DNA from: Blastocatellia bacterium
GTDB taxonomy: Bacteria; Acidobacteriota; Blastocatellia; Chloracidobacteriales; JADJPF01
DNA length: 34,272 nt
Assembly: GCA_039812885.1 (NCBI GenBank)
Contig: JBDIBI010000015.1
Span: forward strand, 126,878 to 161,149
Direction of reading: 5' to 3'
Position 1 is the stretch's first letter, and each line of letters begins with the position of its first letter. The notes below the pieces were generated by a model that was not told the origin of the DNA, made no database searches, and saw only the letters and a list, made by a program, of their open reading frames with translations. Below, one piece after another: positions 2,022 to 11,042 of the stretch. Both the position numbers and the translations under genes were made by a program.

Positions 2022-3239
2022 ATGACCGAACAAAGCGAACAATTAGCAGCTGGCACAGTTCTAGTTAATCGATACACGATTGTTAAACGGCTTGGTGGAG
2101 GAGGTATGGGAAATGTTTATCTAGCAACAGATAAACATTTGGCAGAAGCACACCGAGCTGTTAAAGAAATGATTGGCCGATTTTCTGATGAAGCATCCAA
2201 AAAAAAGGCGATAGAAGATTTTAAGCGAGAAGCTAATGTTTTGTCTTCTTTGGAACACCCTTCTATTCCTACTGTTTTTGACTATTTTGCTAGTGATGAT
2301 GGCCGTTATTACTTGGTAATGAAATATATTCAAGGTCGTGATTTAGAGGAAGAACTAAATGCAGCAAAGGCTGCTGGTCAGAATTTTCTACCAGAAGCTA
2401 CTGTAGTAAATTGGGCAATTCAATTATGTGAAGTATTTGACTACATTCACAGCCTAGATCCTCCTATTATTTATCGTGACATGAAACCTGCAAATGTTAT
2501 GGTTGACTCTAAGCTTAAACGAGCTATGTTAGTCGACTTTGGTATTGCTAGAGTTGTTGCCCCGACTCAGAAAAATGTTACTGCAATAGGAACAATGGGT
2601 TATGCTCCTCCAGAACTCTTTGCTGGTAAAGTTGAAGCACGTTCTGATATCTACTCTTTAGGTGCAACTATGTTTCACCTTTTAACAGGAGAAGATCCTC
2701 AAGCTAATCCTCTACTACTTTTTGATTTCAGTCGTTTCCCAAGACCAATTCAAATCAATCCTTCGTTAACCAAGACAATTGACGAAATTATTGCTAAGTG
2801 TGTTGCTCATAAGCCTACAGATAGATTTAAATCTGCTGCAGAAATGAAACAAACACTAGAAAAACATCGGTTTGCATTAGAATCAGGAGAAGCTACCAAA
2901 CCTAAAAACCCTGTGGGAGTTTTAAAAATAGTTCTTAGCGGTTCTGGACACCAAGCTACTTTTGAAATAAGCAAAGAAACTAACTTAATTGGTCGTCATG
3001 ATCCTGCTCGAGGCATTACACCAGAAATTGACTTAGGTCAATTTGATAGCTCTGGTAGAGTTTCTCGCCGACATGCAACAATTCATATCCAAGGTGGTAA
3101 TTTCTTTATAGAAGACTTAGGAAGTGCTAATGGTAGTACATTAAATCAAGTACCCTTACCATCACAAGAACGCAAGCCTCTAAAACCTGGAGATCAAATC
3201 CATATAGGCGAAACAGTTCTAGAGTTTTCTATTAAGTAA
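2022..3239 (+). CDS. Ser/Thr protein kinase (Hanks-type) with C-terminal FHA domain
   Basis: Kinase motifs are the G-loop GGGGMGNVY, the lysine in AVKEM, the catalytic loop YRDMKPANVMV, DFG, and GTMGYAPPE. The C-terminal roughly 100 aa form an FHA domain (LIGRH...GRVSRRHATI...FFIEDLGSANGSTLN). Confidence 0.85.
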   Translation: MTEQSEQLAAGTVLVNRYTIVKRLGGGGMGNVYLATDKHLAEAHRAVKEMIGRFSDEASKKKAIEDFKREANVLSSLEHPSIPTVFDYFASDDGRYYLVMKYIQGRDLEEELNAAKAAGQNFLPEATVVNWAIQLCEVFDYIHSLDPPIIYRDMKPANVMVDSKLKRAMLVDFGIARVVAPTQKNVTAIGTMGYAPPELFAGKVEARSDIYSLGATMFHLLTGEDPQANPLLLFDFSRFPRPIQINPSLTKTIDEIIAKCVAHKPTDRFKSAAEMKQTLEKHRFALESGEATKPKNPVGVLKIVLSGSGHQATFEISKETNLIGRHDPARGITPEIDLGQFDSSGRVSRRHATIHIQGGNFFIEDLGSANGSTLNQVPLPSQERKPLKPGDQIHIGETVLEFSIK

Positions 3240-3270
3240 TATTAGAGTAGCAAGTTTTATAATAAAGTAT

Positions 3271-3303
3271 AAAAAAGAGTAGAATTGTTTCTACTCTTTT
3301 TTT
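3271..3303. terminator. Bidirectional rho-independent terminator between the convergent kinase-FHA and metallophosphoesterase genes
   Basis: AAAAAAGAGTAGAA-TTGT-TTCTACTCTTTTTTT forms a 10-bp stem and 4-nt loop, flanked by an A-run on one side and a T-run on the other. Confidence 0.75.
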
Positions 3304-4217
3304 ATTTTTAAGATGACGATTTCTGGAGGAACACAAAAGCGTACTGGAATAATGCTAGTTCCAATCCCAGTACTTACATAAAGATGACGATTATTTTCTA
3401 TTACATGCCCAGCAGCATAACGTTGTCCAAAGCTAGAAGGAATACTAGGCCGACCTAAGAAAGGGAGTTTTATCTGGCCTCCATGAGTATGTCCAGATAA
3501 AGTTAAACTCACCTTATCTGGAATTTCAGGAAAGATATCTGGATTGTGGCTTAGCATTAAAATTGGATCATCACTAGTTTTGGCTAAGGCTTTTATTATA
3601 TTTGGAGGGTCATCTCTTTTCCAAAAGTCCATTAACCCTGCAACCCAAAAACTTTTTCCATCTTTGGTTAATTCGACAGAATCATTTTTTAACACATTGA
3701 TATTAACTTGTTCTAAAGCTGTTTTTAGTGTATTTCCTGTTCCATCTAACCACCAATCATGATTACCCAAAATAGCTATAACACCTAAAGGAGCTTTTAA
3801 TTCTTTTAGTTTTTGAGCAATTTTATCTGGCTCAGCAAAAAAACCAAACTTCTTATAATTAGGGCTAGAAACAACTGTATCTCCTAAAATCATTATTAAA
3901 TCAGGAGATTGTTTATTTGTCTCTGAAACAATAAAGGCTAATCTATCTAAACTTACATGAGGAGATCCTACATGAAGATCTGTTAGAATCGCAATTCTTA
4001 AGCCATTATGTTCTTGGTGCCACTTCCCTATTGATAAATCTACATTTTTAATTACTAGCCGAGAAGGCTCTATCCAAAAAGCCCATACACCTAAAACTAA
4101 GCCTAAAAGAACAAAAAATAAACTAGCAAGTCCTAAGAGTTGTTTTATCTTTTTTCTATAAGAAACTGTTTTTACGACTATTTGCTTTATTTTATCATCA
4201 TCCAAGGAGTCTGACAT
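3291..4217 (-). CDS. Membrane-anchored calcineurin-like metallophosphoesterase (YkuE-like)
   Basis: There is an N-terminal TM helix (LLGLASLFFVLLGLVLGVWAFW) and the metallophosphoesterase motifs ILTDLHVG, GDTV, GNHD, SHNP and GHTHGG. The ATG at 4217 is preferred; the ORF-track start at 4247 is a TTG that would overlap msrB by 23 nt. Confidence 0.75.
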   Translation of the reverse strand: MSDSLDDDKIKQIVVKTVSYRKKIKQLLGLASLFFVLLGLVLGVWAFWIEPSRLVIKNVDLSIGKWHQEHNGLRIAILTDLHVGSPHVSLDRLAFIVSETNKQSPDLIMILGDTVVSSPNYKKFGFFAEPDKIAQKLKELKAPLGVIAILGNHDWWLDGTGNTLKTALEQVNINVLKNDSVELTKDGKSFWVAGLMDFWKRDDPPNIIKALAKTSDDPILMLSHNPDIFPEIPDKVSLTLSGHTHGGQIKLPFLGRPSIPSSFGQRYAAGHVIENNRHLYVSTGIGTSIIPVRFCVPPEIVILKIKKE

Positions 4218-4224
4218 AAATACA

Positions 4225-4629
4225 CTAGTCTGAATCTTTAGGTACAAACTTTAGAGATATAGAATTAATACAATAACGTAAGAAAGTTGGAGCAGGGCCA
4301 TCTTCAAAAACATGTCCTAGATGAGCATCACATTTGCTACATAAAATTTCTTCTCTAACCATAAAGTGGCTATGATCTTGCTCTATTTTTACACTTTCCT
4401 GAGTAACGGGTTCCCAAAAGCTAGGCCAACCACTACCAGAGTTATATTTTGTTTCAGAATTAAACAACTCATTTCCACAACATACACAAAGGTATTTGCC
4501 CTCTTTTTTGTTGTGATAATATTCTCCAGAAAATGGAGCTTCAGTAGCTTTTTTTCTGCAAACCTGGTATTGCTCAAAAGTTAATTCTTTTTTCCATTCT
4601 TCGTCTGATTTAATGACTTTATCGCTCAT
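4225..4629 (-). CDS. msrB: Peptide methionine-(R)-S-oxide reductase MsrB
   Basis: There are two CxxC zinc motifs (CVCCGNELF and [12 protein letters not shown]) and the catalytic signature GHVFEDGP...RYCINS. The ATG at 4629 is preferred, with GGAG 8 nt upstream; the track's 4641 start is a TTG. Confidence 0.85.
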
Positions 4630-4683
4630 AAAAATCTCCAACTAGATTAGTTCCCAAGTAAGTAGAACTTACTTGGGGTGATT

Positions 4684-5103
4684 TTATTTACAGTATTGTT
4701 CAAAAGCATTTTTTAGATCTGTAGCAATATCGTTTGCATGACGGCCTTCAATTTGGTTACGGTGCATCATATAGACTAGTTTTCCATCTTTTAGCAATGC
4801 AACAGAAGGCGAAGATGGGGGCATTGATTCAAAGTAACTTCTTGCTTTAGCAGTAGCTTCTAGATCTTGGCCTGCAAAAACAGTAGTTAATTTATTAGGT
4901 TTAGTTGAGTTTTCCAAAGCTAACGCAACACCAGGTCTAGCTTTACCAGCAGCACAACCACAAATAGAATTTACTACTACTAAAACAGTTCCAGAAGCAT
5001 TTTTCAAATTTACATCTACTTCTTCTGGAGTACGCATTTCAACAAAACCAATTCGCGTTAACTCTTGACGCATAGGGGCAACCATAATTTCTGGATATGG
5101 CAT
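4684..5103 (-). CDS. Bacilliredoxin-like thioredoxin-fold protein (YphP/YqiW, DUF1094 family) with CGC active site
   Basis: The 139-aa ORF has the VVNSICGCAAG CGC redox motif typical of BrxA/BrxB bacilliredoxins. GGAGGAG lies 9 nt upstream of the ATG. It is the first gene of the apparent brx-msrB-phosphoesterase operon. Confidence 0.6.
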   Translation of the reverse strand: MPYPEIMVAPMRQELTRIGFVEMRTPEEVDVNLKNASGTVLVVVNSICGCAAGKARPGVALALENSTKPNKLTTVFAGQDLEATAKARSYFESMPPSSPSVALLKDGKLVYMMHRNQIEGRHANDIATDLKNAFEQYCK

Positions 5104-5668
5104 GCAATAATCTCCTCCTTATATTATTTATCCTATTAAGATAAGTAAAAACTTACCTTAAGCTAACAATTGATAGCTAAGTTATAAACAAAGTTATTCT
5201 TAAAAATTAGATTAAAAAAGAATAAAACACTATCTAAGCTTTAACTAGAAAACATTGCAAATTTTTACCAATGTGCTTATTTGACTTCCTTTGACTCTTT
5301 ATTTTTAGCTTCTTGCTTCCAAAATATCATTTCTAAAAGGCTTATACCTGTTTTTATCTCTTGACAAATTTTTACTCATTCTATTATCTTAAATAAAAAT
5401 GAAAAGCATTTTCATTTTCTATAAAAATAAAAACAAAAAAAGCGTCCTGATTGAATACAAGACGCTAGTTCAGTCATAAAAACAAAACTCCAAGAAATAA
5501 GCTTAATGGGCATCAAGCATCACTTGGAGTAGATTACCTTCTTTTGAAAGGATCCACTGTATGTGTAACACACTTATTTTTCTCAAGCAAGGGAAAAACC
5601 TTGTTAGGGAAATTTCTTCTCGCTTTAGACCTTCCCAACAAATAAAAGCACTTTCTAGTAAATTGGGT

Positions 5669-7597
5669 ATGTCTCTAGTATTACTTTGTTTATTATCAAG
5701 TAGTTATAGTTTGTCTTTAGCTCTAGCACTAGCTAATATTTCTGGACATTTGGCAGATCAAAATGGTTTACCAATTAGAGGAGCTAATATAATTTTGCAA
5801 TCTCAATTAATTGCAAATGAACAAAATGTTGTTAGTAATGGCGAAGGAATGTTTTTCTTTAAAAATTTACCTGAAGGTAAATATAAACTGATTATTACTG
5901 CACAAGATTATCTTCCTATAATTAAAACTATCTCTTTGCCATTATCAGACTCAAAAGAACTAGACTTAACTCTTTCTACAATTAATAAAAATTCTTCTAA
6001 CACAACTACTTCAACATCAGAAGTAGAACAACTTCGTCAACAATTAATTCAAACTACTCAACAACTTAACCAAACCAACCAACAAGTTGAAAAACTTGCA
6101 GCGTTAGTTCAACAATTGCAAGCTAAAATAGATAAAGCTGAAAGTAAGCCTGAAGAAACTATTGGTTTATCTGCCAATGTTTCATCTGTATCTGTTGCAT
6201 CTACTAAACCTGTAGTAAATGAACCTGCTAAGAAAACAGGTATTCTTGCAGGACTTATACATAGCAACAACCCCCAAAATGATGGGCAATCTCAAGATCC
6301 AAATTCTATTGATAAATTAATTAAACCTAAAGCCGAAGGTGGACAGTTTTCTGGCTCTCAAGGTTTGCTTAAAACAGATAGAGTAAAAGTAGGTGGTTAT
6401 CTTGGATTTCGCTATCAAACTCGTGGGTTAGATGATGGTGTTGAAATACAAGAAAATGTTGATGAAGCAAATGCAGGAATGACTGCGGATACTAATTTTA
6501 AGCGTTCTGGCTTTGTTAACAGTCGTTTAGTATTAGGAATTGCTGCGACTTTAGCTCCAAAACTATTATTTAACAGTGAAATTGAATATGAATTTGCTGG
6601 CAAAGAAGTAGATATAGAACAAGCTTATGTTGAATACCAATTTCACCCTACATTTAACTTTAGAGGTGGTGTAATTGTTCCTCCACTAGGCCGATTTAAC
6701 TTGTTCCACGATGATAACTTACAAGACATTGCTACCCGTCCTCTAGTAAGCACTTTTGTTATTCCATCCACCTACAAAGATGCTGGAGTAGGTTTCTTAG
6801 GGAGTGTTAACATAGGTAAACGTTCTAAATTAAGCTATGAGGGTTATGTAGTAAATGGTTTGCGCAGCGATGAAGGAGGAGAATTTGCTCGTGAAGCAGG
6901 GTTATTTGAGTCAAAAGACAACAATAGATTTTTTGATAACAACCCTCAAAAGTCTGTAGTTGGACGCTTAGTATTTAGCCCTATAATAGGATTAGAATTA
7001 GGTGCATCTGGCTACAGGGGCAAACATGATAATCAAGGAAGATATGATTTATCTATTTTTTCCTATGATTGGAAATTTACTCGTGGAGACTTTCAAGTTA
7101 TTGGAGAATATGCTCGTGCTGCTATAGGTAGAGCACCTGAGACAGATCAAGAATTAGCAGCAAAAGCTTTTCTTCAATCTCTACCTAAGGGAAATTACAC
7201 AAACACCTTTGAATTTTTAGATGAAAACATTAATGAGCCTATTTTTGATAAATCTGCTCGTTCTACTGATGGTTTATACGTTGAGGCACGTTATCGTTTT
7301 CGTCCTCGTTGGTTTACTTCTCGCACAAGTGAAGAAGGGTCAATAGCTCCTGTATTTCGTTTTGATCAAGTTAATTTTGACCGTTCTTACAAAAACTTTA
7401 GTTTCCCATTAAATCAACGCCGCTACAGTATGGGACTATCAATTCGTCCTGTTGAAGCAACTACATTTAATTTCACCTATAACTTTAACCGTAAGCCAGA
7501 TTTATTTTTACGTTTGCCTGATGGTAGACCATTTGGTCCTTATTTTACAAACTTAGGTGTCAATAGCTTTAGTTTTGGAATGGCTGTAGCATTTTAA
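5669..7597 (+). CDS. Outer-membrane beta-barrel protein (porin-like) with an N-terminal CarbopepD_reg-like domain and coiled coil
   Basis: The signal peptide is MSLVLLCLLSSSYSLSLALALA. It is followed by a carboxypeptidase-regulatory-like beta-sandwich (GHLADQNGLPIRGANIIL...EGKYKLIITAQDY), a Q-rich coiled coil, then about 400 aa of alternating amphipathic strands ending ...FSFGMAVAF, which is the OMP terminal-Phe signature. The alternative upstream ATG at 5561 (AAGGA 7 nt upstream) would add a 36-aa basic N-extension. Confidence 0.6.
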   Translation: MSLVLLCLLSSSYSLSLALALANISGHLADQNGLPIRGANIILQSQLIANEQNVVSNGEGMFFFKNLPEGKYKLIITAQDYLPIIKTISLPLSDSKELDLTLSTINKNSSNTTTSTSEVEQLRQQLIQTTQQLNQTNQQVEKLAALVQQLQAKIDKAESKPEETIGLSANVSSVSVASTKPVVNEPAKKTGILAGLIHSNNPQNDGQSQDPNSIDKLIKPKAEGGQFSGSQGLLKTDRVKVGGYLGFRYQTRGLDDGVEIQENVDEANAGMTADTNFKRSGFVNSRLVLGIAATLAPKLLFNSEIEYEFAGKEVDIEQAYVEYQFHPTFNFRGGVIVPPLGRFNLFHDDNLQDIATRPLVSTFVIPSTYKDAGVGFLGSVNIGKRSKLSYEGYVVNGLRSDEGGEFAREAGLFESKDNNRFFDNNPQKSVVGRLVFSPIIGLELGASGYRGKHDNQGRYDLSIFSYDWKFTRGDFQVIGEYARAAIGRAPETDQELAAKAFLQSLPKGNYTNTFEFLDENINEPIFDKSARSTDGLYVEARYRFRPRWFTSRTSEEGSIAPVFRFDQVNFDRSYKNFSFPLNQRRYSMGLSIRPVEATTFNFTYNFNRKPDLFLRLPDGRPFGPYFTNLGVNSFSFGMAVAF

Positions 7598-7710
7598 CTT
7601 AGTTGGATTTGCTAGTAATCTAGCTAAGTCTTTCTATTTTCTATAAAACCAAATTTCAGATCTCTTTTTAGAGGTCTGAAATTTATTATGTAAAAGTGTT
7701 AAGGAAAATT

Positions 7711-8934
7711 ATGCATTCTTTCAAGAAATTTATACTAGCGACGTTTATAGCTTTTTCTTTTTTATTAACAACTTATGAGCCAACAATAGTAGCTCAACAA
7801 AGCTTTACAGAAGCAATTACAGGTTTTGATAATGAGCCAAATGGCTTAGTCGATAGTGCAAAACATAAAGAAAATCTAGATGTTTTTGCACAAGTAGAAG
7901 GTATAAAAGATGGTATAGGCCCTGTATTTAATTCATTTTCTTGTGGTGAATGTCATTCAAATCCAATTATTGGAGGCAGTAGCCAAATTACAGAACTACG
8001 TGCTGGACATTTTGATGGAAAAAATTTTATTGATCACCCTGGTGGCTCACTAATTCAAAGCCGTGCAATTGATCCATCTATTCAAGAAAAAGTCTTAGAA
8101 GGCAATGAAGTAAGGACATTTAGACTTTCTTTAAGCATTTTAGGAGATGGTTACGTAGAAGCTATTGATGATAATACACTACTTAATATTGCTAAAGAAC
8201 AAGTTAAACTCTCTGGAGGAAAAATTGCGGGTCAGGCGATTTGGGTACCTGTTGAAGAAGCTCCTGGAGTAATGCGTATTGGTCGTTTTGGTTGGAAATG
8301 CCAACAAGCTAGTTTGCTTTCTTTCTCTGGAGATGCTTATGTAAATGAAATGGGAATTACAACTCCACTTTTCCCTCTAGAAAATACATCTAATGGAAAA
8401 TCTATTAGTAAATTTGACAGTTTAGCAGATCCAGATGAAGGTGATAATGATGACTTGGAAACATTTACTGAATTTATGAGAGCCACTAAAGCACCTTCTA
8501 GAGACGCAAAACTAGCTCAAAATCCTAATGCCCAAACTGGAGAAAAACTATTTACTGACATAGGCTGTGCTATTTGCCATGTCAGTAGTTTAACAACGCT
8601 ACCAACAGGTTTTAAGATTAACGGTGGTACATTTACTATACCTGAAGCTTTAGGTAATAAAATAATTCATCCTTATGGGGATTTTCTTTTACATGATATA
8701 GGAACTGGAGATGGAATAGTGCAAAACGGTGGTCAAGAGACTAGAAATAAAGTTCGCACTGTTCCTCTTTGGGGTTTACGCACTCGTAACCGTTTAATGC
8801 ATGATGGTCTTTCTTTAACAGTTAACGAAGCAATCTTGCGGCATGCAGGTGAGTCTAGTTTTGTTATAGATAAATATCGTGCTTTAAGCAAAAAACAACA
8901 ACAGCAAATTTTAACTTTTTTAAGTTCACTATAA
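7711..8934 (+). CDS. Secreted di-haem cytochrome c peroxidase-family protein (CCP/MauG/DUF1111-like)
   Basis: There is a signal peptide and two CxxCH haem motifs (CGECH and CAICH). The C-terminal LRTRNRLMHDGLSLTVNEAILRHAG matches the CCP-family LRN...HDG...EAV.H motif, and GRFGWK is also present. The start is set to the ATG at 7711 (AAGGA 5-6 nt upstream); the track's 7696 is a GTG. Confidence 0.7.
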   Translation: MHSFKKFILATFIAFSFLLTTYEPTIVAQQSFTEAITGFDNEPNGLVDSAKHKENLDVFAQVEGIKDGIGPVFNSFSCGECHSNPIIGGSSQITELRAGHFDGKNFIDHPGGSLIQSRAIDPSIQEKVLEGNEVRTFRLSLSILGDGYVEAIDDNTLLNIAKEQVKLSGGKIAGQAIWVPVEEAPGVMRIGRFGWKCQQASLLSFSGDAYVNEMGITTPLFPLENTSNGKSISKFDSLADPDEGDNDDLETFTEFMRATKAPSRDAKLAQNPNAQTGEKLFTDIGCAICHVSSLTTLPTGFKINGGTFTIPEALGNKIIHPYGDFLLHDIGTGDGIVQNGGQETRNKVRTVPLWGLRTRNRLMHDGLSLTVNEAILRHAGESSFVIDKYRALSKKQQQQILTFLSSL

Positions 8935-8938
8935 TTTT

Positions 8939-9505
8939 ATGGAAAGACGCATTTTTATCAACAAACTAATAAAAACTGTGGGTTTAGCAGCAACAACTGT
9001 TATAGCTAACCCTTTGCCAATTTGGGCACAAGAACGTGTTTTTTTAACAACAGAAAAAGCCTTAAAACTAGTTTTTCCTAAATCTGAAAAAGTGCTTACA
9101 GAATCAAAAGTCTTAAGCGATGAGCAAATTAAAAAAATATCTAATTTGCTTAGAATACCTATCCCAAAACAGCAAATCTTTTTCAGAGGAGAAACAGCAG
9201 GTGCTACAGATGGTTATGCAATGATTATAAATGAAATTGGTAAAGATCAGTACATAACCTTTATTGTTGGGATAACTCCTCAATTTAAAGTTTCCAAAGT
9301 TTCATTAATGGTATTTAGAGAAACTCGTGGTTGGGAAGTTCAAGATGCTCGTTTTTCCAATCAGTTTAATGGCAAAACGAGCAAAGACCGTTTACTTGTA
9401 GGTTCAGATATTGTTGGCATCACTGGTGCGACGCTCTCAGCACAAGCTTTCTGCCGAGGGACAAAAAAAGCGATTGCTCTATGTGAAATAGTTTATGGAG
9501 CATGA
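8939..9505 (+). CDS. FMN-binding domain protein (NqrC/RnfG-like) with a Tat-type signal peptide; predicted ApbE flavinylation substrate
   Basis: The N-terminus MERRIFINKLIKTVGLAATTVIANPLPIWAQE has an RRxF[IL]xK twin-arginine motif plus an h-region and AxA-like site. A C-terminal TGATLS motif corresponds to the [S/T]GAT[S/T] FMN attachment site. The gene lies 5 nt after the stop of the upstream gene. Confidence 0.65.
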   Translation: MERRIFINKLIKTVGLAATTVIANPLPIWAQERVFLTTEKALKLVFPKSEKVLTESKVLSDEQIKKISNLLRIPIPKQQIFFRGETAGATDGYAMIINEIGKDQYITFIVGITPQFKVSKVSLMVFRETRGWEVQDARFSNQFNGKTSKDRLLVGSDIVGITGATLSAQAFCRGTKKAIALCEIVYGA

Positions 9506-10448
9506 AGTTTGTCAAGTCCAGTATATAATGGGGACTACCGTAGAAATAATTATTTATGTTGATTCTTGTTCTGACTCACAACCAATCTTAAGCGCTGCTT
9601 TTGCCGAGTTTGAGCGTCTAGAACAAAAATTTAGCTACTTCAATCCAGAAAGTGAGCTTTCCCTAGTAAACACACAAGCAGCTAAAAAGGCTGTTTGTGT
9701 GTCTCCAGAATTCTTCCATATAGTCGAAAAAGCCTTAAACTACTCTCTAGCTTCAAAAAATAGCTTCTCAATAATGCTTGCTCCTTTAACACAACTTTGG
9801 CAAAAAGCTTTTTTAGAAAATAAAATGCCTAAGAAAAAAGATATTGCTGAATTGCAACAACTTAATAACTCTAACTTAATAGAATTAGATAGTGATAACT
9901 ATACTATTTTTTTCCACCACCCTAAACTAAGCTTAGATTTAGGAGGATTTATAAAGGGTTATGCAGCAGATTGCGCAAAAGCAACTCTTTATCAACACGG
10001 AATACTTAATGGACTAATTAATGCTGGTACTAGTACTATTACTGCCTGGGGGACTTCTTTATATAGAGAAAGTTGGCCTTTTGGAATTAAACATTTACAA
10101 GAAAATAGTGTGGTAGCTGTAGTTAACCTAACAAATCAAGCAATATCTACTTCAGGGACTAATGAGAAAAACTTCCAACTTCAAAATAAATTTTTTTCCC
10201 ATTTAATAAACCCTTCTACAGGCTACCCTGTTGATCTTTTAACTAGTGCTACAGTTATTTGTAAATCAGCACTAGAAGCAGAAGTTATTTCCAAAATGCC
10301 TCTAATGTTAGGACTAGAAGAAACTGTAATTTCTTGTGAAAACAATGGGTTACTCCTAGATGGTGTACTTTTACAAGAATTAGACGAAGAAAAAAATATC
10401 CATTTATCTTATTATCAGTTATCAGACTCAATAAGTATAATATCTTAA
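9495..10448 (+). CDS. apbE: FAD:protein FMN transferase (ApbE family)
   Basis: ApbE motifs are MGTTVEI near the N-terminus, DLGGFIKGYAAD and INAGTSTI. There is no signal peptide. It overlaps the upstream FMN-binding gene by 11 nt (ATGGAGCATGA). The alternative start at M12 is 9528. Confidence 0.75.
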   Translation: MEHEVCQVQYIMGTTVEIIIYVDSCSDSQPILSAAFAEFERLEQKFSYFNPESELSLVNTQAAKKAVCVSPEFFHIVEKALNYSLASKNSFSIMLAPLTQLWQKAFLENKMPKKKDIAELQQLNNSNLIELDSDNYTIFFHHPKLSLDLGGFIKGYAADCAKATLYQHGILNGLINAGTSTITAWGTSLYRESWPFGIKHLQENSVVAVVNLTNQAISTSGTNEKNFQLQNKFFSHLINPSTGYPVDLLTSATVICKSALEAEVISKMPLMLGLEETVISCENNGLLLDGVLLQELDEEKNIHLSYYQLSDSISIIS

Positions 10449-10469
10449 CTAGTATCTGGAAGGTAAATT

Positions 10470-11042
10470 ATGACTCCATTTCCTCTTTCTCGAAGTGATT
10501 GGAATACAAAAATTTTAATAACTATTTTTCTTTTGGTGATGTTAGTCTCTTTTACTGTGGCAGAGCTAAATGTTTATGATAAGGTTGGACGTATTAAAAA
10601 CGGAGTAGTGCTTAGATATGGCCCAAGCCCAGAATTAACAATTGATCCTAATAACCCAAATCCAGAACCTAATATACTTTCAACAGAACCTAGTTTAACT
10701 CCTCCTGTAGAAGGTGAAATAGTAGCCCGTATGAATACCTTCAGTATTTTACTGGATATAACTCACCCACATGTTTTTGAGATTCCTTTAGTTTTATTTG
10801 TGCTAGCCCATTTTTTGATGAGAACTAGAGTTTCAGAACGGCTCAAACTTGTAACTTATTTAGTTAGTTTTGGTGGATGTGTAGCATTTCTAGGAACTCC
10901 TTGGCTTGTGCGGTATATATCAACTAAATTTGCAAACTTGCTTTATTTAGGAGCATTTAGTATGGGTATAACTGTAGTATTAATGGTAATAATTCCTATA
11001 TTTGATATGTGGCTACCAGTAAAAAAAGCTGCCAAGTCTTAG
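10470..11042 (+). CDS. Small integral membrane protein (4 predicted TM helices, HPH...AH motif), last gene of the flavin/haem cluster
   Basis: The 190-aa ORF has hydrophobic segments ILITIFLLVMLVSFTV, IPLVLFVLAHFLM, LVTYLVSFGGCVAFLG and LGAFSMGITVVLMVIIPIF. A Pro/Asn-rich loop follows TM1. GGAAGG RBS is present. I recognise no family. Confidence 0.5.
   Translation: MTPFPLSRSDWNTKILITIFLLVMLVSFTVAELNVYDKVGRIKNGVVLRYGPSPELTIDPNNPNPEPNILSTEPSLTPPVEGEIVARMNTFSILLDITHPHVFEIPLVLFVLAHFLMRTRVSERLKLVTYLVSFGGCVAFLGTPWLVRYISTKFANLLYLGAFSMGITVVLMVIIPIFDMWLPVKKAAKS

Follow-up and report, generated by a model that had tools for sequence, protein, structure and literature searches.

Proteins flavinylated by the flavin transferase ApbE form an emerging and broadly distributed route of extracytoplasmic electron transfer, for which published surveys list five or six membrane partners. 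Such systems have repeatedly been linked to the reduction and uptake of iron, and every one known depends on a membrane electron conduit (PMC8238504, PMC11334425). The clusters described by Meheust et al. 2021 (PepSY-like/DUF2271/DUF4198 and MsrQ-like) combine, like the locus presented here, ApbE, a secreted protein with an [S/T]GA[S/T] flavinylation motif and one inner-membrane partner; part of them come with Fur regulation and outer-membrane transporters, and the role proposed for them, assimilatory iron reduction, is the one considered below (PMC8238504). That survey dropped leaderless ApbE and FMN_bind genes by design (PMC8238504). Cytoplasmic ApbEs are known, for cytoplasmic substrates (PMC12052999), and DUF1111 proteins have been found in Fur-regulated iron-uptake operons (PMC3143127; bioRxiv 10.1101/072470). 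Here we analysed a five-gene operon in a 34,272-nt stretch of DNA (the window) from a low-GC Acidobacteriota metagenome-assembled genome, whose nearest named relatives are annotated as Acidobacteria or Blastocatellia. As judged by comparative genomics, the conserved unit is made up of four genes, coding for a porin, an exported FMN-binding protein, ApbE and a small protein with four transmembrane helices (4-TM protein) of family PF27139, while a di-haem protein of the DHOR/DUF1111 family is an optional add-on. We propose, with an even chance of being right, that the operon is repressed by iron and encodes a self-contained flavin module for periplasmic electron transfer, which would serve reductive iron acquisition.

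The genes, taken from the listing of open reading frames (ORFs), are given below; coordinates are window positions unless a locus identifier (L0xx) is given.

5561 to 7597, forward strand: outer-membrane porin gene
7696 (GTG start) to 8934, forward strand: DHOR/DUF1111 di-haem gene; probable start at ATG 7711, after which a Sec signal follows
8939 to 9505, forward strand: FMN-binding protein gene
9495 to 10448, forward strand: ApbE gene, overlapping the FMN-binding protein gene by 11 nt
10470 to 11042, forward strand: 4-TM protein gene

The ORF listing reproduced the layout of five co-directional genes with gaps of 113, 4, -11 and 21 nt (counting the DHOR gene from ATG 7711) that had been reported in an earlier reading of the letters alone, hereafter the sequence-only reading. 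The profile search proposed there matched PF06537/DUF1111 (E = 6.8e-37, with two CxxCH motifs), FMN_bind (1.4e-7, with ITGAT) and ApbE (PF02424, 2.3e-62), and the other parts that it had named, a CarboxypepD_reg domain (1.1e-11) and the 4-TM protein, were recovered as well.

Homologues of the 4-TM protein were aligned (alignment A1) and then used to collect 16 loci from genomes and 29 from metagenomes, which were compared with the window proteins by tblastn; the weak PF27139 loci L049 and L050, frameshifted or high-GC fragments, were excluded. The order porin, FMN_bind, ApbE, 4-TM was present in 13 of the 14 genome loci whose flanks were long enough and in about 12 loci from metagenomes, i.e. 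in about 25 Acidobacteriota loci, and ApbE was located directly upstream of the 4-TM gene in all loci with enough flank except L019 and L044. With the same order in about 25 independent loci, the grouping is, by this comparison, far beyond chance. The co-occurrence that the sequence-only reading had expected therefore held for four families but not for the quintet, as the DHOR gene was found in only 4-5 of about 25 Acidobacteriota cassettes. Only in the window, L007, L016 and L064 did it occupy the slot between porin and FMN_bind; in L018 it was located downstream of the 4-TM gene, its product being 65% identical to the window DHOR. A two-domain multicopper oxidase (MCO) of about 355 aa, carrying the full set of four copper motifs and closest to CopA/PcoA and CueO models, filled the slot in L012, L020, L026 and L031. 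In the remaining loci the slot was empty, leaving about 17 of 25 cassettes without an oxidase. The L018 DHOR has diverged about as much as the other cassette proteins, which suggests a long association with frequent loss. The DHOR subfamily comprises more than 8000 relatives, mostly outside the cassette, and its close members at 62-66% identity were found in a copper-resistance island (L065) or alone (L066); an obligatory link between DHOR and the cassette was therefore rejected, and DHOR is considered accessory rather than core. Altogether, conserved synteny backed the earlier claim that the genes work as one unit, centred on an exported FMN-binding protein flavinylated by ApbE and served by a separate outer-membrane channel. 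The family-defining partner of this unit, a point missed in the sequence-only reading, is the small 4-TM protein and not DHOR.

Two of these loci deserve a closer description. The L065 island (L065:2189-15278, Blastocatellia GCA_049276615.1) carried a 66%-identical DHOR among copper-homeostasis genes, including a MerR-type regulator, cupredoxins, a Cu-ATPase and CusCBA-like efflux genes; this context is a hint that copper, in addition to iron, may be a target of the DHOR subfamily. L064:3660-10001 contained porin, DHOR, FMN_bind and a leaderless ApbE, with no 4-TM gene after ApbE and two OmpH genes downstream.

Remote forms of the cassette were present in Brocadiales and on unassigned metagenome contigs, with the following arrangements.

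L051 to L054: porin, FMN_bind, ApbE, TM and GNA1162-like lipoprotein; a divergent HTTM, imelysin, DHOR, imelysin operon alongside
L055 (Brocadiales): porin, small protein, FMN_bind::ApbE fusion and TM
L058, L059 and L062: variants of porin, FMN_bind, TM and ApbE
L060: FMN_bind and TM; ApbE in the same run of genes, farther on

Unannotated upstream ORFs in L051, L055, L058, L059 and L062 matched the porin profile at 1e-38 to 1e-67, so that all five remote cassettes with upstream sequence carried a porin. Because of these matches, we consider on genomic grounds that the four-family association is ancient. The DHOR gene with imelysins beside the cassette in L051-54 gave some support to the functional link between DHOR and cassette that had been suggested earlier. 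In L051:326-9189 and L060:198-7422, genes for PMT_2 glycosyltransferases, an LPG_synthase_TM protein, an amine-oxidase-like flavoprotein and the GNA1162-like lipoprotein were interleaved with FMN_bind, TM and ApbE; this mixture suggests an additional or different role of the cassette in that lineage.

The FMN-binding protein is of the RnfG/NqrC type (FMN_bind, PF04205, 32.5 bits with a cut-off of 22). Its ITGAT aligned on the flavinylated ITGAT of RnfG (7zc6_G, E = 1e-5), and G-A-T-[LIM]-S was invariant in 25 homologues. The protein thus carries the [S/T]GA[S/T] motif and is predicted to be flavinylated, with Thr165 of TGAT (residues 162-165) as the predicted site of covalent FMN attachment. 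Its N-terminus (MERRIFINK...) showed, in MERRIFINKLIKTVGLAATTVIANPLPIWAQ, the features of a predicted substrate of twin-arginine translocation (Tat), namely [ST]-R-R-x-F-L-K, a moderately hydrophobic h-region and an AxA-like site, and RRxF[IVL] was present in 21 of 24 loci. Both results agree with its earlier description as a Tat-exported NqrC/RnfG-type protein with a flavinylation motif. Gene 4 was likewise correctly named as ApbE (211 bits with a cut-off of 25.6; match to 7esa_A at 1e-30). It has no signal peptide: the ApbE domain begins at residue 12, the ORF has no in-frame upstream extension and no hydrophobic N-terminus was found. The enzyme is leaderless and therefore predicted to be cytoplasmic.

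The export signals of the two proteins covaried across loci. FMN_bind with [KER]RRxF[IV] was paired with a leaderless ApbE in 21 of 24 Acidobacteriota loci, and likewise in L064. FMN_bind lacked the RRxF Tat consensus in L015, L020 and L021 (the signal was clearly Sec-like in L020, while L015 and L021 carried RRA[IA]), and there ApbE had a hydrophobic N-terminal segment. Remote cassettes combined a Sec-type FMN_bind with a Tat-signal ApbE in L051 (true start at nt 6713, SRRALLRR) and L060 (NRRDFLK), with a Sec-signal ApbE in L058 and L062/63, and with a fused ApbE in L055 and L059. Thus, in every locus lacking RRxF in FMN_bind (L015, L020, L021, L051, L055, L058, L059, L060 and L062/63), ApbE had a hydrophobic, Tat or lipobox leader or was part of a fusion. 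Since Tat-signal FMN_bind pairs with leaderless ApbE and Sec-like FMN_bind with exported ApbE, the simplest reading for the window's clade is that flavinylation would occur in the cytoplasm and be followed by Tat export of the holo-protein. The pairing of a leaderless ApbE with a Tat-signal substrate is a second point that had gone unnoticed, and no Tat-routed substrate of a cytoplasmic ApbE is described in the review PMC12052999 or in the literature searched.

The third such point is a putative operator upstream of the porin gene, where two elements were located.

5361 to 5390, forward strand: promoter-like site, TTGACA-18 nt-TATCTT, 10/12 consensus matches
5400 to 5414, no strand assigned: Fur-box-like 7-1-7 palindrome TGAAAAGCATTTTCA, putative repressor operator, just 3' of the -10 element

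Promoter-like sites in this region were not above chance, and the sole support for the one at 5361-5390 is its position relative to the operator. The motif TGAAAATnATTTTCA, counted at 2 mismatches or fewer, was found upstream of the porin gene in the window, L007, L008, L009, L011, L015, L016, L018, L020 (twice), L021, L028, L033-35 and L064. Non-redundant loci totalling 319 kb gave 17 matches, of which 13 were upstream of the porin gene, 11 of these within 400 nt (those in L028 and L033 being assigned by position); the binomial value for this placement, 4e-19, is an upper bound on its significance, as the loci are related. The TGA...TCA frame of the motif is that of Fur boxes (TGATAATnATTATCA). 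The position of the site was kept across at least 12 diverged loci, the sequence flanking the palindrome was not conserved, and in several related loci a -10-like TATACT/TATAAT hexamer was located at the same short distance upstream of the palindrome. L064 carried three Fur-box-like copies upstream. It is this positional conservation across loci, and not the window alone, that makes the operator convincing as a predicted Fur-type 7-1-7 inverted repeat overlapping a promoter. In addition, fur-family genes flanked the cassette in four lineages: in L011/L037, L015 and L021 they directly followed the 4-TM gene, and in L012 one directly preceded the porin gene. Among NCBIfam models these genes matched Fur best, not PerR or Zur, at scores below the equivalog cut-offs. 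As the operator is conserved in position and fur genes adjoin the cassette, iron-responsive repression is likely in the window's clade, and the iron connection drawn in the sequence-only reading is supported.

Fur-box-like sites were also observed in two further settings. In L020, a gene for a 646-aa multihaem cytochrome with c7/c3/MtrC-like domains (L020:2419-4359, reverse strand) was divergent from the MCO-type cassette, and the intergenic region common to both (4360-4796) held two such sites. A weaker palindrome, TGAGAATCAATTACA, was located 75 nt upstream of the Brocadiales porin (L055:3894-3908); it differs from the Acidobacteriota motif at 3 positions, too many for a call on this site alone.

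The 4-TM protein gave no significant match and one sub-threshold match in the local Pfam copy, and its family, PF27139 (Aq_1264_TM), was obtained from a precomputed assignment. Its AlphaFold2 (AF2) model was a four-helix membrane bundle with a mean predicted local confidence (pLDDT) of 85, and His99, His101 and His114 were invariant in alignment A1, in line with the small His-containing membrane protein described earlier. The signature of the protein is [ED]-x-T-H-x-H at the periplasmic start of the second helix, and another His lies 13 residues deeper. Applied to the alignment, the positive-inside rule placed both termini in the cytoplasm, and the lipobox-type fifth segment of fusions agreed with this topology. 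Among 114 remote representatives, His99 and His101 were conserved in 99%, His114 in 80%, and Lys126, Trp145, Arg148 and Trp181 in 71-95%. A profile search of 1.84 billion representatives retrieved 400 proteins at E≤1e-3; two of the family, P0238 and P0244, were fusions in which the 4-TM domain was followed by a fifth hydrophobic or lipobox-like segment and then by ApbE. In L059:4548-6682, two PF27139 paralogues were adjacent, the first having lost every conserved His and the second being fused to ApbE through a lipobox-like segment, RRAAAVLAVLGIVGAGC.

We favour a role of the 4-TM protein as the transmembrane electron conduit to the flavoprotein, because it is the only inner-membrane component of the cassette and every characterised flavinylated system has such a conduit. 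The spacing of its His residues on one helix (i, i+13/15), with Arg, Lys, Trp and Tyr at both membrane faces, resembles that of di-haem b proteins, and by analogy a homodimer would supply the bis-His haem ligation modelled for FezC. The protein matched none of the known flavinylation-associated membrane classes (PF12801, PF01794, PF03929/PF16357, PF02683, NqrB/RnfD and DUF4405). It was also considered as an ApbE substrate and rejected, as [S/T]GA[S/T] is missing from its sequence and D-I-T-H is no match to that motif.

The outer-membrane protein had been read as a TonB-style receptor with a plug-like domain, which proved not to be the case. No Plug (PF07715) or TonB barrel (PF00593) match was obtained in the Pfam search, and the AF2 model (pLDDT 76.5) showed a beta-sandwich, a helix of about 40 residues, a disordered linker and about 16 strands in about 400 residues, compared with 22 strands in TonB-dependent receptors. 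Its best structure matches were 16-strand porins, a PDB sequence search gave no match, and homologues at 56-60% identity exceeded the Porin_O_P gathering score; profile match and OprP-like fold together place it in the OprO/OprP family (PF07396). From its N-terminus, it consists of a signal peptide, which probably starts at Met37 (nt 5669), the CarboxypepD_reg beta-sandwich, the coiled-coil helix, the linker and a 16-strand OprP-like barrel ending in Phe. It is thus a diffusion-type porin without a plug, similar to the trimeric porins of the OprP type; the more general claim of a dedicated outer-membrane channel in the operon stood, as the OprP-like porin is conserved with FMN_bind, ApbE and the 4-TM protein.

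The di-haem protein, earlier assigned broadly to the CCP/MauG/DUF1111 family, belongs to DHOR/DUF1111 (127.5 bits with a cut-off of 22; haem c motifs CGECH at residue 83 and CAICH at residue 291; N-terminal hydrophobic Sec-type leader, with export predicted). It is not an ordinary CCP/MauG protein, as CCP_MauG (PF03150) gave no match at E<0.1 and DHOR was the sole family reported. This result supports the sequence-only reading, which had named a grouping with ordinary CcpA peroxidases as contrary to its proposal. A PDB sequence search with DHOR found no relative at E<0.01. Profile searches of the five proteins and the flanking genes gave no match to the Ftr1/EfeU permease (PF03239) and no imelysin (Peptidase_M75).

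These findings suggest the following mechanism. When iron is scarce, Fur would leave the operator. ApbE would attach FMN to Thr165 in the cytoplasm, where FAD and Mg2+ are available, and the folded holo-FMN-protein would then be exported by Tat. The 4-TM protein, probably a dimer with one or more b-type haems between His101 (or His99) and His114, would pass electrons from the quinol pool or the cytoplasm to the periplasmic flavin. The flavoprotein could then reduce ferric species entering by the dedicated porin, such as anionic Fe(III) chelates, and the resulting Fe(II) would be imported by an unlinked transporter. The slot enzyme, DHOR here and a two-domain MCO elsewhere, may be a periplasmic metal or peroxide oxidoreductase that re-oxidises Fe(II) or Cu(I) for hand-off or detoxification, or that removes H2O2 against Fenton damage. 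We infer the substrate and the direction of electron flow, and the physiological role is a proposal from comparative genomics; the reductive direction is favoured because of flavin thermodynamics and of the literature link between flavinylation and iron reduction. The compact periplasmic electron-transfer or iron-reduction/uptake system suggested by the sequence-only reading thus gained a four-gene flavin module and a Fur-type operator and lost DHOR as a core member.

Several observations weigh against this proposal. Within the window alone the palindrome match was not significant (0.94 expected), and the TGAAAATnATTTTCA motif was absent from the Terriglobia and Bryobacterales versions L012, L014, L017 and L031. 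The L064 cassette has no 4-TM gene, His114 is lost in Planctomycetota members of PF27139, and one of the two adjacent L059 paralogues has no His at all. The operon lacks an iron permease, a siderophore gene and a TonB component. OprP-type porins are known for phosphate and pyrophosphate, not for iron. Finally, the slot MCO and the copper-island relative of DHOR could point to copper instead of iron. This last point leads to a reversed flow, in which the module would be an electron sink for periplasmic Fe(II)/Cu(I) oxidation, as proposed for FtrB/FtrD in FtrABCD, with DHOR or MCO oxidising the metal and the flavoprotein and 4-TM protein carrying the electrons to the quinone pool. The metal-oxidation or copper reading is kept alive because the slot enzymes are of the oxidase type, typically metal oxidases and among them an MCO with complete copper motifs and close to CopA/PcoA and CueO models, and because a DHOR relative sits in the copper island; DHOR is moreover regarded as EfeB-like (PMC3143127), and P19/FTR1 clusters with FMN-binding proteins are known (PMC8238504). 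However, oxidation cannot be the core function, since most cassettes, about 17 of 25, have no slot oxidase. An Ftr1-type permease is missing as well. Moreover, at about -200 mV a flavin makes a poor acceptor for electrons from Fe(II) or Cu(I), and MCOs and peroxidases already use O2 or H2O2 as acceptors, which makes a membrane sink unneeded. We regard a reversed flow as distinctly unlikely.

An iron-sparing carrier seems equally improbable, if not slightly more so. Here, the flavinylated protein would replace c-type cytochromes under iron starvation, as flavodoxin replaces ferredoxin, and feed periplasmic reductases such as a DHOR peroxidase or MCO, with the porin as a co-regulated general channel. 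Fur-type control and the Pfam annotation of DHOR as a putative peroxidase are consistent with it, and the interchangeability of flavins and cytochromes in respiratory clusters has been described (PMC8238504). Yet the porin is the tightest-linked partner across phyla (5 of 5 remote cassettes with upstream sequence), which is hard to fit to an internal carrier, most cassettes encode no acceptor enzyme, and a need for two haems in DHOR is odd for an iron-sparing device. The remaining functional alternative, unlikely but the strongest of the three, makes the 4-TM protein a transporter, either a flavin/FAD exporter for ApbE or an Fe2+/Cu channel acting through [ED]xTHxH, the flavoprotein receiving its electrons from elsewhere. 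The fusions of the TM domain to ApbE would suit an exporter, as the FAD route to periplasmic ApbE in Gram-negative bacteria is unsolved (PMC12052999); HxH with an acidic residue at the membrane surface is also typical of metal sites, and the L059 paralogue without any His would suit a transporter as well. Against this, the 4-TM protein is kept, with invariant His, in 21 loci whose ApbE is cytoplasmic and needs no exported FAD, which makes the FAD exporter role unlikely. Without the 4-TM protein, furthermore, the cassette would have no link from the periplasmic flavin to the membrane or cytosolic electron pool, whereas characterised flavinylated systems have one (PMC8238504), and a bundle of four helices, one of them polar, offers little room for a solute path. 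To the possibility that the five genes are chance neighbours and form no system we give next to no weight. The genes that flank them have unrelated housekeeping roles (bacilliredoxin-type PF06491, MsrB and KdsA) and relatives of DHOR occur alone elsewhere, but four of the five genes keep their order in about 25 loci and across phyla, their reading frames overlap or nearly abut, gene fusions occur and an operator is shared; the conserved synteny effectively refutes this reading.

Other features of the window were observed around the operon.

7597 to 7629, forward strand: hairpin with a 13-bp stem, from the terminator-like listing, starting at the last base of the porin stop codon, with only 3 G-C pairs and a weak T tract

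This hairpin may attenuate transcription between the porin and the genes from DHOR onward, and could thereby set the ratio of porin to periplasmic proteins. The first ATG in the long ORF of the porin is overlapped by a palindrome, TGTGTAACACA (5560-5576), which was also present in the two closest loci (L007 at about 5027 and L016 at about 5132); this region may be coding, as an N-terminal extension ahead of the signal peptide at Met37, or a 5' untranslated element. Upstream of the operon (2022-5103) were genes for a Ser/Thr kinase with an FHA domain and, on the opposite strand, for a metallophosphoesterase, MsrB (SelR) and the PF06491 protein. The latter two form a small thiol/methionine-repair pair, and these upstream neighbours are not kept beside the cassette in other loci.

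The cassette may be of interest for several reasons. PF27139 is a seventh candidate family of membrane partners, with about 400 representative clusters at 50% identity, several of them fused to ApbE, and a dedicated diffusion porin takes the place of a TonB receptor. Cytoplasmic flavinylation followed by Tat export would, if true, sidestep the unsolved delivery of FAD to the periplasm. Soil Acidobacteriota are abundant, yet little is understood of how they acquire iron; as the cassette is common among them, it is a concrete candidate for TonB-independent reductive iron uptake. Its plug-in slot, with DHOR, MCO or nothing, constitutes a natural experiment on DUF1111 function. In its broadest form the proposal would make PF27139 a new widespread class of flavinylation-associated conduits, probably dimeric and with b haem, which together with a stalked OprP-like porin and an RnfG-like flavoprotein, flavinylated cytoplasmically by a leaderless ApbE in Acidobacteriota and then exported by Tat, would carry out TonB-independent, Fur-controlled reductive iron uptake. 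We advance this broad form only tentatively, as a possibility on the doubtful side. Literature searches (DUF1111 with ApbE, aq_1264, twin-arginine with ApbE, and ApbE/FMN-binding/porin/Fur) found no description of the cassette, although subscription journals were thinly covered and such absence is not proof.

Each component has known relatives from which it differs. The closest solved relatives of the FMN-binding protein are RnfG/NqrC of Rnf and Na+-NQR, but the window has no RnfA-E or NqrA-F genes, all NCBIfam RnfG scores were far under their cut-offs, and RnfG/NqrC are membrane-complex subunits whereas the window protein has a cleavable-looking Tat signal. The cytoplasmic ApbE of Klebsiella pneumoniae, which flavinylates cytoplasmic fumarate reductase, is leaderless like that of the window, but its substrate remains in the cytoplasm while that of the window has a twin-arginine export signal (PMC12052999). 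The porin is about 16% identical to the phosphate porins OprP/OprO and the stalked porins DcaP and OmpM1; unlike them, it carries an extra CarboxypepD_reg domain at the stalk tip and lies within a flavinylation operon under a Fur-type operator. The imelysin-DUF1111 clusters of P. aeruginosa (PA4370-4373) and EfeUOB also have a di-haem protein of DHOR/DUF1111 type in a setting of iron-regulated uptake in the periplasm, but they have imelysin (Peptidase_M75), DUF1513 or an Ftr1/EfeU permease, none of which is present in the window, and DHOR is dispensable for window-type cassettes. The working analogy for the 4-TM protein is provided by DUF4405 and FezC, flavinylation- and ferrosome-associated cytochromes b that are also small membrane proteins found through the apbE neighbourhood (Huang et al. 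2024, PMC11334425). Their best-conserved residues are membrane-embedded histidines, and FezC was modelled as a homodimer (PMC11334425). A sequence relationship to PF27139 was not detected; DUF4405 proteins have six helices against four in PF27139, where a single helix bears His and haem binding is a prediction. With regard to the clusters of Meheust et al. 2021, the window has an ApbE gene and an FMN_bind substrate with [S/T]GA[S/T], as in their operational definition, but not the extracytosolic ApbE: its ApbE is leaderless and its substrate a Tat passenger. Its membrane partner, the 4-TM protein with His on a single helix, is not PepSY, MsrQ, NapH, DsbD, NqrB/RnfD or DUF4405, and its outer-membrane partner is an OprP-like porin in place of their TonB-dependent receptor. 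Altogether, the cassette resembles flavinylated iron-reduction clusters and departs from them in three defining features, the location of ApbE, the class of the membrane partner and the type of the outer-membrane partner.

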